Both the position numbers and the translations under genes were made by a program. The notes under the pieces are model-generated. The model was not told the DNA's origin and did not search any database. It saw nothing but the letters and a program-made list of their open reading frames with translations. From contig JAYSWD010000062.1 of assembly GCA_043718225.1 (NCBI GenBank), forward strand, positions 1 through 52,071: a stretch of DNA of 52,071 nucleotides. Direction: 5' to 3'. Source of the DNA: Candidatus Omnitrophota bacterium (GTDB lineage Bacteria; Omnitrophota; Omnitrophia; Omnitrophales; Aquincolibacteriaceae). Positions 7,487 to 14,073 of this stretch are shown here, in pieces (within the stretch, counting starts at the first letter, position 1; each line of letters opens with the position of its first letter).

Positions 7487-8920
7487 ATGTCATTCGGAAA
7501 AGTAGTTCAAGTTATGGGCCCCAGTGTGGACATCGAGTTCGGAACGGATCAGCTTCCTAAAATGTTAAACGCGGTCACAATTGATCTTGCCTCTGCGCCT
7601 TCGTCGCAACCGGGCGAATCCACTAAAAAAAATCAGCTCGTGCTTGAAGTGGCTCAGCATATCGGCGGCAATGTCGTGCGCTGCATCGCGCTCGCTTCTA
7701 CCGACGGGCTCGTGCGCGGCATGAAAGCCGCGGACACCGGCGCGCCGATTTCCGTTCCGGTCGGAAATCAAACGCTCGGCCGAATTTTTAATTTGCTTGG
7801 TCAGCCGATTGACGAGCAAAAAAATAAGCCGATTGATCTTTCAAAAACTTATCCGATTCACCGTGAGCCGCCTTCTTATCAGGACCTTTTACCTGTTTCC
7901 GAAATTTTAGAAACCGGCATCAAGGTTGTGGATCTTTTGGCTCCGTACGCCAAAGGTGGAAAAGTCGGCCTTTTTGGCGGCGCCGGTGTGGGCAAAACCG
8001 TCATCGTTATGGAGCTGATTAATAACATCGCTAAGCAGCATGGCGGTGTTTCTGTTTTTTGCGGCGTCGGTGAACGCACGCGCGAAGGCAACGATTTGTG
8101 GCTTGAGCTTAACGAATCGGGCGTGCATGAAAAAACCGCGCTTGTTTTCGGACAGATGAATGAGCCGCCGGGCGCGCGTCTTCGCGTTCCGCTTACAGGT
8201 CTCGCGATGGCTGAATATTTCCGCGATGAAGCGCATCAGGACGTGCTTTTGTTTATCGATAATATTTTCCGTTTCACTCAAGCGGGATCCGAAGTCTCCG
8301 CGCTTTTGGGGCGCATGCCTTCCGCCGTGGGTTATCAACCGAATCTCGCGACCGAAATGGCCGCGCTGCAGGAACGCATCGCTTCGACCAAGTCCGGTTC
8401 GATTACTTCCGTTCAGGCGATTTATGTTCCCGCGGACGATTTAACCGACCCGGCTCCGGCAACGGCATTTTCGCATTTGGACGGCGTAACTGTTTTGTCG
8501 CGCCAAATCGCGGAGCTTGGAATTTATCCCGCTTGCGATCCGCTTGCTTCGACTTCGCGCATGCTTGATCCGCGCATCCTGGGCGAAGAACATTATGGCA
8601 TTGCCCGCGAAGTGCAGCGCATTCTTCAGCGTTATAAAGATTTACGCGATATCATCGCAATCCTGGGCATCAACGAGCTTTCTCAGGAGGACAAGGAAAT
8701 CGTGGCGCGCGCGCGCAAGCTTGAAAAGTTTTTGTCACAGCCTTTCCATGTTGCTGAACAGTTCAGCAATCTGAAAGGTAAATATGTGCCGCTCAAAGAA
8801 ACAATCGCGGGCTTTAAGCGCCTCATTGCGGGCGAATTTGACCATATTCCCGAACAATGTTTCTATATGTGCGGCGGCATCGAAGATGTCGTTGAAAATT
8901 ACAACAAAATGGCCAAATAA
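7487..8920 (+). CDS. atpD: F0F1 ATP synthase subunit beta
   Basis: Walker A GGAGVGKT and beta-subunit similarity throughout. GGAGG RBS. Confidence 0.95.
7591..7614 (+). repeat. 24-nt hairpin element in frame in atpD
   Basis: CTCTGCGCCTTCGTCGCAACCGGG, translated SAPSSQPG, within an apparent extra loop ([12 protein letters not shown]) in the beta N-terminal domain. Same element as 13014 and 13911. Confidence 0.7.
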
Positions 8921-8928
8921 TATTTTGG

Positions 8929-12562: not shown

Positions 12563-14073
12563 TTCTCGCATTACCTTTCATTCCTTATTTGGCGGCATTG
12601 CTAATTCTTTTTATGCCCGCAGCTCATGGAAAATGGCTGCGCCCGCTTGCGATCGGCGCAACCGGCTTGTGTTTATTAATCGTGCTTTTTCTGACTCAAA
12701 ATTTTGATCGCGCGTTTCAAGGCTTTCAATTTGTTCATAGCTGGGATTGCTTCGCTGAAATGGGCATTCGCTATCAAGTCGGGCTTGACGGCATTAATCT
12801 CATTTTTTGTTTATTGCTCGCGTTTGTGGCTTTCGCCGGCGCTTTTATCGCGGGAAAAACTAAAGACCGCCTTAAAGAATACCTTTTCTATTATCTGCTT
12901 TTGACCGGCAGCATGTTCGCCGTTTTCACCGTGCTGAATGTTTTTTTTCTGTATGTTTTTTATGAAATGACTTTGATTCCGGTTTTCGCGATGATTGGGC
13001 TGCATCGTTTTGCCTCTGAGCCTTCGGCTCAACCGGGCGGTCTTCCTTCCAAGCAAGAGGCAGGGGCAATGAAGCTCGCACTTTATATGACCGCGGGCGC
13101 GATGCTAGGACTTTTCGCAATATTCACTCTCTATAATATGCTCGGGCCCGATTTTCTGGATCTTACAAAATCAAAAGCTCTCGCGGCTTCTCACGCGGCA
13201 TTGTTGACGCCTGAAACTCAGAAATGGCTGGCCGCGCTTTTGATCGTAGGCTTTGGCATCATGACATCACTTTGGCCTTTCCACAGCTGGTCGCCTTCCG
13301 CTTATTCAGCCGCTCCCGCTTCGCTTTCGATGGTGCATGCCGGCGTTAAAATAGGTCCCTATTTTTTGATTCGCATCGCACTTGTCTATTTACCGTTAGG
13401 GTTTCAGTTTTGGGCGCCGACGCTGGCAATACTTGCAACCATCGGCCTCATCTATGCCGGCTTCGCTGCCATTCGCCAAAAGAATCTCAATACCATGGCG
13501 GCTTTTTCAAGCATCAGCCATATGGGCTATGTTTTTCTGGCTTTCGCCGCCATGAATCCAACCGCGCTTTCAGCCGGAATTTTGCTTATTTTCGCACATG
13601 GCATCATGACCGCCTGCTTGTTTGGATTGATCGGACATTTAACCGCACAGACCGGCACCGACGGCATTCATGATTTCGGCGGCCTCGGAAAAACGCTGCC
13701 TTTCTTTTCGGTTTGTTTCATGCTGACTTGCATGGCTTCAGCGGGAATTCCCGGTTTCGCTAATTTTCCGGCCGAACTTTTGGTTTTTATCAGTGCCTGG
13801 AAAACTTTTCCTGCCGCGGTTATTTTTGGAGTCTTGGGAGTTTTGATTACCGCCATTTATATGATTCGCGCGGTACAAGCGCTCTGTTTTGGCGTGGCGA
13901 CTCGTTTATCCTCTGCGCCTTCGGCGCAACCGGGAAAAGAATTACGCGACATGATTGGCTTATGGGATAAAGCGCCTTTTCTGGTTCTTTTAGCGATACT
14001 TTTCTTCTTCGGATTTTTTCCATCCGCGCTTTTGTCCATTATTCAACCGGCAGTCGCGAGGCTTTTCATATGA
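12559..14073 (+). CDS. nuoM: NADH-quinone oxidoreductase subunit M
   Basis: Antiporter-like subunit. The ATG at 12559 overlaps the nuoL stop (ATGA). The track ORF extension from 12478 overlaps nuoL. Confidence 0.9.
   Translation: MILALPFIPYLAALLILFMPAAHGKWLRPLAIGATGLCLLIVLFLTQNFDRAFQGFQFVHSWDCFAEMGIRYQVGLDGINLIFCLLLAFVAFAGAFIAGKTKDRLKEYLFYYLLLTGSMFAVFTVLNVFFLYVFYEMTLIPVFAMIGLHRFASEPSAQPGGLPSKQEAGAMKLALYMTAGAMLGLFAIFTLYNMLGPDFLDLTKSKALAASHAALLTPETQKWLAALLIVGFGIMTSLWPFHSWSPSAYSAAPASLSMVHAGVKIGPYFLIRIALVYLPLGFQFWAPTLAILATIGLIYAGFAAIRQKNLNTMAAFSSISHMGYVFLAFAAMNPTALSAGILLIFAHGIMTACLFGLIGHLTAQTGTDGIHDFGGLGKTLPFFSVCFMLTCMASAGIPGFANFPAELLVFISAWKTFPAAVIFGVLGVLITAIYMIRAVQALCFGVATRLSSAPSAQPGKELRDMIGLWDKAPFLVLLAILFFFGFFPSALLSIIQPAVARLFI
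13014..13037 (+). repeat. 24-nt hairpin element in frame in nuoM (copy 1)
   Basis: CTCTGAGCCTTCGGCTCAACCGGG, translated SEPSAQPG. The stem GAGCC/GGCTC shows compensatory changes relative to GCGCC/GGCGC at 13911. Confidence 0.7.
13911..13934 (+). repeat. 24-nt hairpin element in frame in nuoM (copy 2)
   Basis: CTCTGCGCCTTCGGCGCAACCGGG, translated SAPSAQPG. Confidence 0.7.

Follow-up and report, generated by a model that had tools for sequence, protein, structure and literature searches.

A probable REP-like palindromic repeat of about 33 nt, in frame in housekeeping genes and between cistrons in an Omnitrophota clade

Introduction

Rickettsia palindromic elements (RPEs), reportedly described by Ogata and colleagues in 2000, are said to be selfish sequences that occupy both intergenic DNA and, in frame, essential genes. 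Proteins tolerate the encoded segment at their surface, and the copies decay after insertion; RPE-1, of about 100-150 bp (30-50 residues), is confined to Rickettsia. Cyanobacterial small dispersed repeats (SDRs) of 21-27 nt were reportedly described by Elhai and colleagues in 2008, and we know of no SDR that occurs as a frame-locked insertion in housekeeping ORFs. MITEs possess terminal inverted repeats of 15-30 bp and a target-site duplication, with a total length of 70-300 bp.

Repetitive extragenic palindromes (REPs) tagged by GTAG or CGTC are also known from within genes (Di Nocera et al. 2013, PMC3733652). Like the element described here, these REPs are single stem-loops, 20-40 bp long and conserved in the bases at their foot, lie mostly downstream of ORFs, where they sometimes provide the stop codon, and in a minority of cases reside within ORFs, notably in uvrA and repair genes, the inserts being thought to fall in linkers or loops (PMC3733652). 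A further likeness is that the same orthologue site can hold different repeats, and such REPs occur in bacteria of the PVC group (Opitutus). Related arrangements include REPINs, which are inverted REP doublets mobilised by RAYTs (PMC3116915), and organelle coding palindromes such as the long perfect inverted repeats of Nematomorpha mitochondria (PMC6649704).

Here, a stretch of 52,071 nt from contig JAYSWD010000062.1 (GCA_043718225.1) of a Candidatus Omnitrophota bacterium, hereafter the window, was analyzed, in which a 24-nt hairpin motif had been noticed in atpD and nuoM. This motif is probably the core of a dispersed REP-like repeat of about 33 nt that is found in genomes of one Omnitrophota clade.

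Results

Copies in the window

A covariance model of the element detected seven copies in the window, all inside the atp-nuo cluster. The host genes, the copies and one candidate relic are as follows.

4536..4559, +, weak candidate for a decayed relic in atpH, from codon alignments; TCCGGAGCTTCCGCCAAGCCGGCA
6402..6440, -, intergenic copy between atpA and atpG, reverse; 34.6 bits
7487..8920, +, atpD (F1 beta), host gene; Pfam match and match to solved F1-beta chains
7579..7617, +, atpD copy; 24-nt core 7591-7614, ASAPSSQPG, 42.9 bits, in the training set
8917..8953, +, intergenic copy right after the atpD stop; E=3.6e-4, outside the training set
8989..9025, -, copy in the atpD-atpC spacer, reverse; E=2e-6, outside the training set
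10634..12562, +, nuoL, host gene; Pfam match, start codon uncertain
12016..12054, -, antisense copy in nuoL; in-frame reading AVGSKTQR, 44.4 bits
12559..14073, +, nuoM, host gene of two copies; Pfam match, orthologue alignment, solved chains
13003..13035, +, nuoM site 1, 33-nt insertion; core 13014-13034, HRFASEPSAQP, 50 bits
13899..13937, +, nuoM site 2 copy; 24-nt core 13911-13934, SSAPSAQPG, 49.4 bits

As the first-pass annotation had proposed, the 24-nt motif is present in atpD and nuoM, the three copies showing 1, 2 and 0 mismatches to CTCTGCGCCTTCGGCGCAACCGGG (at nuoM site 1 the match is 13014-13037 on the forward strand and reads SEPSAQPG), and all three (3/3) are read in one frame. Its proposed intergenic relatives at 8992-9013, 8929-8948 and 6404-6428 were all recovered by the covariance model, whose training set included 6402-6440 (-) and the atpD copy. 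At the atpD stop, the forward copy is arranged as TAA-TATTTTGG-CTCTG..., with a stem of 4 bp and a core of 19 nt. In the two reverse copies, the CAGAG flank stops 7 nt short of the atpG ATG at 6436 (6402..6440) and 14 nt short of the atpC ATG at 9028 (8989..9025). The antisense nuoL copy, absent from the earlier list, is the seventh in the window.

The putative atpH relic stands at the site of an intact copy in a syntenic relative (L196) and gave no covariance-model match at 4536..4559. A half-copy at 12637-12669 (E=0.09) is probably due to chance and encodes the conserved IGATG of NuoM.

A covarying hairpin between conserved flanks

The element is composed of a T-rich leader (about TTYTGC), CTCTG, a stem of 4-6 bp, a loop of 3-4 nt and CAACCGG. 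The stem comprises 5 bp (GNGCC/GGCNC), with a possible extension to 6 bp via a T-A pair, and encloses a 3-nt TTC loop. The 5-bp stem of the first-pass annotation is retained in this pairing register, which gives a TTC triloop and thereby rules out the accompanying reading as CGCC-TTCG-GCGC, or cUUCGg, with a TTCG tetraloop. Over 24 copies, 98.6% of the cells are paired and both-side changes occur in four of the six pairs, a level of covariation that was reached by none of 500 shuffles. The flanks are invariant, with (C)TCTG on the 5' side, its leading C present in 22/24 copies, and CAACC on the 3' side; with these flanks, folding energies of -10 to -15 kcal/mol are predicted. Support for a further 3-bp helix (GCC/GGC) outside an internal loop is weak, with 83% pairing and a few compensations.

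These results show that the repeat family requires the hairpin and both conserved single-stranded flanks. The covariation reflects the repeat family, i.e. what can propagate. Compensatory stem changes had been taken as a sign of selection on the hairpin: the covariation itself stands, and selection within these genes does not, the atpD stem having been broken twice. That the motif is a nucleic-acid element and not a peptide motif is upheld by the codon identity between copies, by the covarying stem, which alters the encoded peptide, by the intergenic copies and by close orthologues in which the site is empty.

Coding copies in protein loops

Orthologue alignments and solved structures agree with the placement of the coding copies in extra loops: the AtpD and NuoM inserts are additional to both, fall on gaps in the alignments to solved F1-beta and NuoM chains and, where mapped (AtpD, NuoM), lie in loops. 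The AtpD insert of 10-11 residues is located in the N-terminal barrel of F1-beta, on a gap in the barrel loop of 2qe7_D; it amounts to a net +10 codons relative to L201, L196 and L199 and is also present in L200. At NuoM site 1, 11 residues follow the helix bearing the conserved FYEMTLIP motif, and at site 2 about 8 residues (net +8 codons relative to orthologues) precede the last NuoM helix. Both NuoM peptides are modelled as coil with pLDDT <50, within an AlphaFold model that is otherwise confident, and both insertions are missing in 5/5 closest orthologues. A similar insertion was observed at nuoM site 1 in L198 (P0007), and in nuoL, L196 has a forward copy at the codon position of the antisense copy of the window. 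The insertions in atpD and at nuoM site 1 both appear to be about 33 nt long and differ in their phase relative to the core; the alignments here run through variable loops.

Gain, loss and decay among relatives

In five syntenic Omnitrophota relatives the element resides at different sites (21 further matches, E<0.1), and the copy map is not the same across the window, L196, L199, L200, L201 and L198. AtpD of L201 is 96% identical to that of the window and has no insertion, while AtpD of L200 is 97% identical and carries it; close relatives have thus gained and lost the element at the DNA level. The atpD copy shared by the window and L200 has acquired different stem-breaking substitutions, G to T in the window, whose stem has one C/T mismatch, and G to A in L200, so that the hairpin is not maintained there. 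Stem mismatches are also found in several other coding copies, and we infer that coding copies decay in place.

The forward copy after the atpD stop is also present in L196, L200 and L201, and weakly in L199, and its stem differs in each. Across four to five genomes, these differing yet pairing stems look like purifying selection on structure, with a possible function. The reverse copy before atpC recurs at its position in L196, L199 and L201 (4/5 genomes in all), and the copy before atpG is found in 2/4 genomes, L199 having it in reverse like the window; copies between atpH and atpA were observed only in L200. Some sites are occupied in non-sister genomes, namely nuoM site 1 (window, L198), atpB (L196, L200) and UvrA (L010, L221), and at one nuoL site the copies of the window and of L196 face opposite ways. 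Such shared sites call either for hot spots of insertion or for retention over long times. No target-site duplication was discernible when filled and empty sites were compared.

Coding and intergenic copies

The expectation of further genomic copies was borne out in the window, in the five syntenic relatives and in 21 further loci, which gave 37 covariance-model matches at E<=0.01, a few of them overlapping L196 or probably due to chance. By hand, 51 copies (26 coding, 25 intergenic) were counted in a biased sample of 17 Omnitrophota loci of about 0.25 Mb. Related copies were found in Rhodobacteraceae, where by inspection they lie in sense orientation downstream of stop codons, and in one Hyphomicrobiales genome; 80 atpD loci of other bacteria gave background-level hits only. 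A flank-pattern scan of viral contigs yielded five hits, none with a hairpin, which we attribute to chance.

The reading frame is intact in all coding copies. The 21-nt core is present in 26/26 coding and 6/25 intergenic copies (Fisher p=3.7e-9), 25 of the 26 coding copies run in sense (p=8e-7), and 23/25 sense copies share one frame (p=1.5e-9), reading (A/S)S(E/A)PSAQP. Most coding copies lie in the frame that gives SASEPSAQPA; other frames in use give FWSSAPTR, PLSQGLNR and AVGSKTQR. The sense-orientation bias exceeds what peptide tolerance alone obviously explains.

Judged from their genes, the proteins with in-frame copies are housekeeping proteins such as AtpD, NuoL, NuoM, UvrA (two genomes), MutL and ribosomal protein L5, further hosts being ScpB, a GcvT-like protein, acetyl-CoA synthetase, CobA/HemD, a heptosyltransferase and BamA, the last named by its sequence. 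The suggestion that bioenergetic genes are special had to be abandoned in view of UvrA, MutL, L5, BamA, ScpB and the spacers of a ribosomal-protein operon. Nor is an in-frame element in core genes as unusual as had been supposed, as Rickettsia RPEs illustrate. Intragenic GTAG/CGTC REPs, including those in uvrA, provide a second precedent (PMC3733652).

Forward intergenic copies lie 5-26 nt past the stop codon of an ORF on the same strand, and this stop codon often falls inside their conserved leader TAATATTTTGG. Reverse intergenic copies are located just upstream of start codons, with a CAGAG(G) flank resembling a Shine-Dalgarno sequence. One locus (L228) has five intercistronic copies after cistrons of its ribosomal-protein operon. 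A promoter-like TTGAAA-18-AATAAT overlaps the atpD stop and the leader; such sites are no commoner than in shuffles.

Comparison with described repeats

The element is similar to known REP and RPE palindromic repeats. As a short palindromic stem-loop it falls within the 20-40 bp of REPs, but its flanks are CTCTG/CAACCGG, with no GTAG or CGTC beside the stem on either strand, its stem is shorter (4-6 bp, rarely 8), its coding copies show nearly all one orientation and one frame, and about half of the copies in our biased sample are intragenic. In addition, a tblastn search with E. coli RayT over 2.4 Mb of loci gave no hit at E<3, and Pfam scans of the other ORFs of the window detected no transposase domains. 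As in RPEs, copies lie in frame in ORFs of housekeeping proteins and in intergenic DNA; the element differs in being about 33 nt long (8-11 residues), unrelated in sequence, and present in Omnitrophota and some Alphaproteobacteria. With SDRs it shares its tiny size, a hairpin with compensatory changes, tandem or nested arrangements and the lack of an encoded protein, but lineage and sequence are different.

A REPIN-like pair of a forward and a reverse copy, 40-70 nt apart, was observed in the atpD-atpC spacer of three to four genomes and in L005. One long hairpin was predicted for this doublet in L196 and not in L005 or L201, so that the doublet fold is inconsistent across genomes. Most copies are singlets, and no RAYT was found nearby. 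The palindromes of Nematomorpha mitochondria are likewise hairpin repeats in frame in bioenergetic genes, whereas the element is short, dispersed, bacterial and also intergenic.

Several other identities were considered. A MITE is ruled out, since CTCTG/CAACCGG are not inverted repeats, the length is about 33 nt and no target-site duplication is discernible. A Rho-independent terminator is ruled out as well, since the T-rich tract is 5' of the hairpin and no copy is terminator-like. To our knowledge, the defining features of CRISPR repeats, integron attC sites and tRNA fragments do not fit the element. Rfam gave no match to the element at the gathering score in the window and carrier loci; at E<=5 there was no match at all in window positions 2000-16000, and the only three matches from five carrier loci (tRNA-Sec, Thr_leader) were weak and lay away from the element copies.

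Discussion

The reading that we prefer is that of a REP-like repeat persisting in two places, intercistronic spacers and, when the frame stays open, ORFs. An in-frame copy would add a harmless loop of 8-11 residues to an essential protein, and coding copies would be passengers, neutral or slightly deleterious and subject to a selective filter, rather than functional parts of AtpD or NuoM. Mobilisation might be brought about by an enzyme of the HUH/Y1 type (RAYT or IS200-like) that recognises the hairpin and flanks on single-stranded DNA; alternatively, the element could spread by template switching or gene conversion.

The possibility most worth weighing against this repeat, while also compatible with mobility, is a functional RNA signal punctuating the polycistronic mRNAs of highly expressed operons (atp-nuo, S10-spc), which we consider conceivable though rather unlikely. 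The AU-rich leader and post-stop hairpin could then serve as a processing site, an exonuclease barrier or a 5' stabiliser, reverse copies would place a hairpin and the Shine-Dalgarno-like CAGAGG before start codons, and the CUCUG and CAACCG flanks would be read by a trans-acting factor, the coding copies being by-products. The strong overall sense bias and the positions of the spacer copies are consistent with such a signal: forward copies follow stops at 5-26 nt, often with the stop inside the leader, five follow ribosomal-protein cistrons in L228, reverse copies stop 7-14 nt short of the start codons of atpG and atpC, the copies after the atpD stop (4-5/5 genomes, pairing kept) and before atpC (4/5) recur, and the Rhodobacteraceae copies appear by inspection to be in sense past stop codons. 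However, Rfam has no counterpart even at E<=5, the copies, whose U-rich tract precedes the hairpin, are not terminator-like, many spacer positions vary (before atpG 2/4 genomes; between atpH and atpA L200 only), coding copies decay, and transcribed spacers hold both orientations. Doubtful, and a long shot in our view, is the stronger proposal that CUCUG-hairpin-CAACCG is at once a cistron-boundary RNA signal and self-copying, shared horizontally by the Omnitrophota clade and Rhodobacteraceae. If it were true, a mobile punctuation element with a regulatory role, only about 33 nt long, would mark stop-proximal sites in ribosomal-protein and ATP-synthase operons, with an unknown trans-acting factor reading the module and frame-compatible copies fixed inside essential proteins.

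Selection at the protein level on S-A/E-P-S-A-Q-P, as a linker, modification site or protease site, would account for the same Ser/Ala/Pro/Gln-rich peptide in 23/25 sense copies. It is nevertheless very improbable, given near-identical codons across unrelated host genes, intergenic copies in both orientations, the use of other frames, the absence of the peptide from close orthologues, hosts as disparate as cytoplasmic, membrane and outer-membrane proteins, and the prediction of disordered loops for the peptides. Chance resemblance or faulty assembly can be set aside almost entirely: only the short length of the motif speaks for it, whereas none of 100 dinucleotide-preserving shuffles gave three matches to CTCTGCGCCTTCGGCGCAACCGGG, covariance-model E-values in the window reach 1e-13, independent assemblies (NCBI MAGs, Logan runs) share the family, and the coding copies are all frame-preserving.

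Palindromic repeats in frame in housekeeping genes are already documented. Under the REP-like reading, selfish palindromes in essential proteins, previously seen as Rickettsia RPEs and intragenic REPs, would extend to Omnitrophota, an uncultured phylum, with a unit among the smallest seen (about 33 nt, 8-11 residues). The selection filter appears unusually sharp, with the 21-nt core in every coding copy and nearly one orientation and frame, and the inserts may be regarded as a natural experiment on insertion-tolerant loops of F1-beta, NuoL, NuoM, UvrA, MutL and ribosomal protein L5. As the same flanks occur in cultivable Rhodobacteraceae, with Rhodobacter sp. SGA-6-6, Stagnihabitans tardus CYK-10 and Pseudogemmobacter lacusdianii as candidate carriers, a purely parasitic existence and mRNA punctuation could be told apart by experiment. 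The element may also add to local assembly and read-mapping variability in ribosomal-protein operons, and for annotation it would account for odd short inserts in Omnitrophota proteins.

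Copies of the repeat in the window

The element is an approximately 33-nt REP-like repeat with a 24-nt hairpin as its core. The three coding hairpin copies proposed in the first-pass annotation were correctly positioned on the + strand and, as claimed, share one frame, one of them reading SSAPSAQP; three matches to CTCTGCGCCTTCGGCGCAACCGGG were reached in none of 100 dinucleotide-preserving shuffles. A looser scan and a covariance model also recovered the three intergenic relatives listed earlier, together with a copy inside nuoL that had been missed and reads AVGSKTQR in frame.

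Element copies in the window
6402-6440, - strand, intergenic (looser scan, covariance model)
7591-7614, + strand, in atpD, one mismatch to CTCTGCGCCTTCGGCGCAACCGGG
8917-8953, + strand, intergenic (looser scan, covariance model)
8989-9025, - strand, intergenic (looser scan, covariance model)
12016-12054, - strand, in nuoL (looser scan, covariance model)
13014-13037, + strand, in nuoM (site 1), two mismatches to CTCTGCGCCTTCGGCGCAACCGGG
13911-13934, + strand, in nuoM (site 2), no mismatch to CTCTGCGCCTTCGGCGCAACCGGG

With speed filters off, the covariance model returned exactly these seven copies and then noise only. All seven fall within the atp-nuo cluster (chance about 7e-5 if independent and uniformly placed), whose gene order is atpB...atpA-atpG-atpD-atpC followed directly by nuoJ-K-L-M-N, the gene calls being confirmed by Pfam. 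A half-copy-like stretch in the N-terminal part of nuoM (12637-12669, +; CTGCGCC-(11 nt)-GGCGCAACCGGC, covariance model E=0.09) is probably due to chance, since it encodes the conserved IGATG.

Anatomy and covariation

An ungapped alignment of 24 copies revealed invariant flanks, (C)TCTG and CAACC, with the leading C nearly so, a nearly invariant tail CAACCGG(C), and a T-rich leader (consensus approximately TTYTGC) ahead of the core. The stem comprises 5 bp (G-N-G-C-C/G-G-C-N-C), extendable by an invariant T-A pair, and closes on a 3-nt TTC loop; the segmentation CGCC-TTCG-GCGC suggested earlier was thus one base off, and a cUUCGg tetraloop was rejected. The compensatory stem changes reported there proved to be part of a strong covariation: 98.6% of cells were paired, four of six pairs varied on both sides, and one pair used AU, CG, GC and UA. 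These covariation values were reached by 0 of 500 shuffles, and shifting the structure by 1-3 columns collapsed pairing to 22-42%. An additional 3-bp outer helix (GCC/GGC) received weak support only. RNA folding energies of the element ranged from -10 to -15 kcal/mol.

Presence and absence at orthologous sites

The closest NuoM (77% identity) comes from the Omnitrophota MAG GFS_2494 (contig JAYTHE010000029), and the named matches lower in the list are also Omnitrophota; both NuoM insertions are absent from the five closest orthologues. Five syntenic Omnitrophota loci all carry the same atp-nuo cluster and the element, with copies at differing sites.

Element copies in syntenic Omnitrophota loci
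L196: coding in atpB, atpH and nuoL (three); intergenic in atpD-atpC (forward and reverse) and one near Fer4
L198 (5 kb covered): coding in nuoM site 1; no intergenic copy
L199: no coding copy; intergenic before atpG and before atpC
L200: coding in atpB, atpG and atpD; intergenic in atpH-atpA and atpD-atpC
L201: coding in nuoL; intergenic in atpD-atpC (forward and reverse)

The cleanest presence/absence case is atpD: the AtpD of the window is 97% identical to that of L200, which has the insertion, and 96% identical to that of L201, which lacks it. Net length gains of 30 nt in atpD, 33 nt at nuoM site 1 and 24 nt at nuoM site 2 put the unit, as judged from these alignments, at about 33 nt including the leader. 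The inserted segments in atpD (7591-7614) and nuoM site 1 (13003-13035) each look approximately 33 nt long, and their boundaries appear shifted relative to the 21-nt core (about -6/+6 in atpD and -11/+1 in nuoM). These alignments lie in variable loops; tentatively, a tandem or circular donor might have supplied one unit length in a different phase at each site.

Mapped onto solved structures, the AtpD insertion corresponds to a gap in the F1-beta N-terminal beta-barrel domain, and the NuoM insertions to one gap following the helix with the conserved FYEMTLIP motif and another preceding the last helix. An AlphaFold model of the window NuoM (mean pLDDT 84.9, pTM 0.88) had pLDDT below 50 solely at residues 155-161, 448-453 and 455-458, which are the two inserted peptides, both modelled as coil between helices.

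Across the cluster (4803-15509), the window and L200 share 96%, 88% and 97% identity in AtpA, AtpG and AtpD and only 68%, 63% and 62% in NuoL, NuoM and NuoN. For these three Nuo proteins the window is closer to L196, at 79%, 80% and 80% identity. The cluster has a mosaic ancestry, which implies recombination or transfer with a breakpoint somewhere between atpD and nuoL.

Constraints on coding copies

Copies were counted by hand, with spurious open frames discarded. The core is 21 nt long in all 26 coding copies and in 6 of 25 intergenic copies (Fisher p=3.7e-9), intergenic cores being mostly 19 or 20 nt. Sense orientation was found in 25 of 26 coding copies (p=8e-7), and 23 of the 25 sense copies use the frame reading (A/S)S(E/A)PSAQP (p=1.5e-9). 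The commonest variant, with a GAGCC stem, contains TGA in two of six frames and gives strongly basic or Leu/Arg-rich peptides in two more, and the reverse strand bears a Shine-Dalgarno-like CAGAGG; together, we infer, these properties explain the orientation and frame bias.

Selection on the hairpin within genes, as the first-pass annotation argued, is contradicted by the shared atpD copy, which has a different stem-breaking substitution in the window (TCG-TCG) and in L200 (GCA). Mismatches or wobble pairs also occur in the copies of MutL, UvrA (L221), nuoL (L201) and others. At the atpH site that is occupied by an intact copy in L196, the window possibly retains a decayed relic. Covariation across the family is therefore a sign of what propagation requires, or of templated correction of quasi-palindromes, rather than of a function in atpD or nuoM mRNA.

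Intergenic copies

Intergenic copies look less randomly placed. Forward copies follow an ORF on the same strand, 5-26 nt past its stop codon, which frequently falls within a conserved leader, TAATATTTTGG-CTCTG, and in the S10-spc ribosomal-protein operon of GFS_2494 (L228, JAYTHE010000029, 366-7722) a forward copy directly follows the stop at five cistron junctions. Four of five genomes have a copy after the atpD stop, and a fifth has a weak one; four different stems are represented, all still able to pair. Ahead of atpC, four of the five have a reverse copy whose end lies 13-14 nt from the start codon. In the window, the reverse copies upstream of atpG and atpC stop 7 and 14 nt short of the respective ATG. 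This pattern could indicate a function, e.g. in mRNA processing, stability or translation initiation, and could equally arise from insertion hot spots with replacement. A reading of the copies as terminators was rejected, none being terminator-like.

Host genes and distribution

Scanning a collection of species-representative genomes by pattern and then applying the covariance model located further genomic copies in GFS_2494, UBA2337 and two more MAGs. The implied tie to core bioenergetic genes did not hold, as many other host ORFs were found.

Further host ORFs
UvrA, same site in two genomes (L010 837-857, L221 4904-4924)
MutL (L224 550-570)
Ribosomal protein L5
BamA, named from sequence only, without a Pfam scan
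ScpB
GcvT-like protein
Acetyl-CoA synthetase
CobA/HemD fusion, two tandem copies
Heptosyltransferase

In L228, the copy in ribosomal protein L5 is in frame, as is a copy in another ORF at the locus edge. Only background matches were obtained in 80 atpD loci of other bacteria.

In Rhodobacter, Fuscovulum, Tabrizicola and related genera, a multi-copy repeat has the same flanks and loop within a composite, in which a GC-rich hairpin A is followed by AAGCCTTTTGTCTC and this in turn by GCCTCTG-hairpin-CAACCGGCTCGG. These Rhodobacteraceae composites lie, by inspection, downstream of stop codons (L093-L195, e.g. L094 974-1000). The composite is often trailed by GCCTCCGGCGGGGATATTT and further inverted repeats, and Rhodobacter sp. 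SGA-6-6 alone has at least nine loci with it. The Hyphomicrobiales MAG Ske_MAG15 (L003 3990-4180) has five or six 35-nt units, CATTCCTGTTG-CTCTGTGCCTTCGGCACAACCGG, of the same sequence as the element; they are arranged head to tail, with a terminator-like hairpin on one side and the following gene on the other. Two phyla share 15 identical flank bases with a covarying hairpin between them, which points to horizontal spread or a common recognition factor.

Relation to known repeats

Rickettsia RPEs are in-frame palindromic repeats. Intragenic REPs tagged with GTAG or CGTC are known, including copies in uvrA; some supply stop codons, and orthologous genes may hold different REPs at the same site (PMC3733652). 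REPINs have also been described (PMC3116915). The UvrA copies in two genomes and the MutL copy recall the preference for DNA-repair genes that has been noted for intragenic REPs (PMC3733652). For the present element, sites occupied in non-sister genomes comprise nuoM site 1, atpB, UvrA and one nuoL site with opposite orientations. It differs from intragenic REPs in its smaller size, in the absence of a GTAG or CGTC tag, and in being strikingly frame- and orientation-locked; on this basis it is classed as REP- or RPE-like in the way it works while belonging to neither family. Rfam gave no match to the element, no RAYT homologue was found in any locus searched, the window encodes no transposase, and none of the papers on Omnitrophota that were searched described the element.

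Other features of the contig

The atpG-atpD spacer (7327-7486) contains two tandem units of another double hairpin, CCGAAAAACATAAATGTTTTTCGG..GAGCCTTAAAGGCTT then CGGGAAACATAAAGTTCCCG..GGGCTTTAAAGGCCT, which appears to be a second structured repeat in the operon, unrelated to the element. The nuoJ ORF (9339-10064, +) has 241 residues as listed, compared with 166-168 in relatives, and its Pfam match begins at residue 92; translation probably starts further downstream, in which case the atpC-nuoJ spacer would be longer. An ORF at 20035-20532 (-), between a Fer4 gene and DUF423/EVE genes, matches the 23S rRNA intervening-sequence protein family (PF05635) and, more weakly, bAvd-like proteins. Beyond the cluster, a giant ORF of 9190 codons (21102-48674, -) spans 27.5 kb with zero element copies, its N-terminal 4191 residues giving just a weak, sub-threshold Peptidase_M23 match; syntenic giant genes also follow the atp-nuo cluster in L196, L199 and L200.
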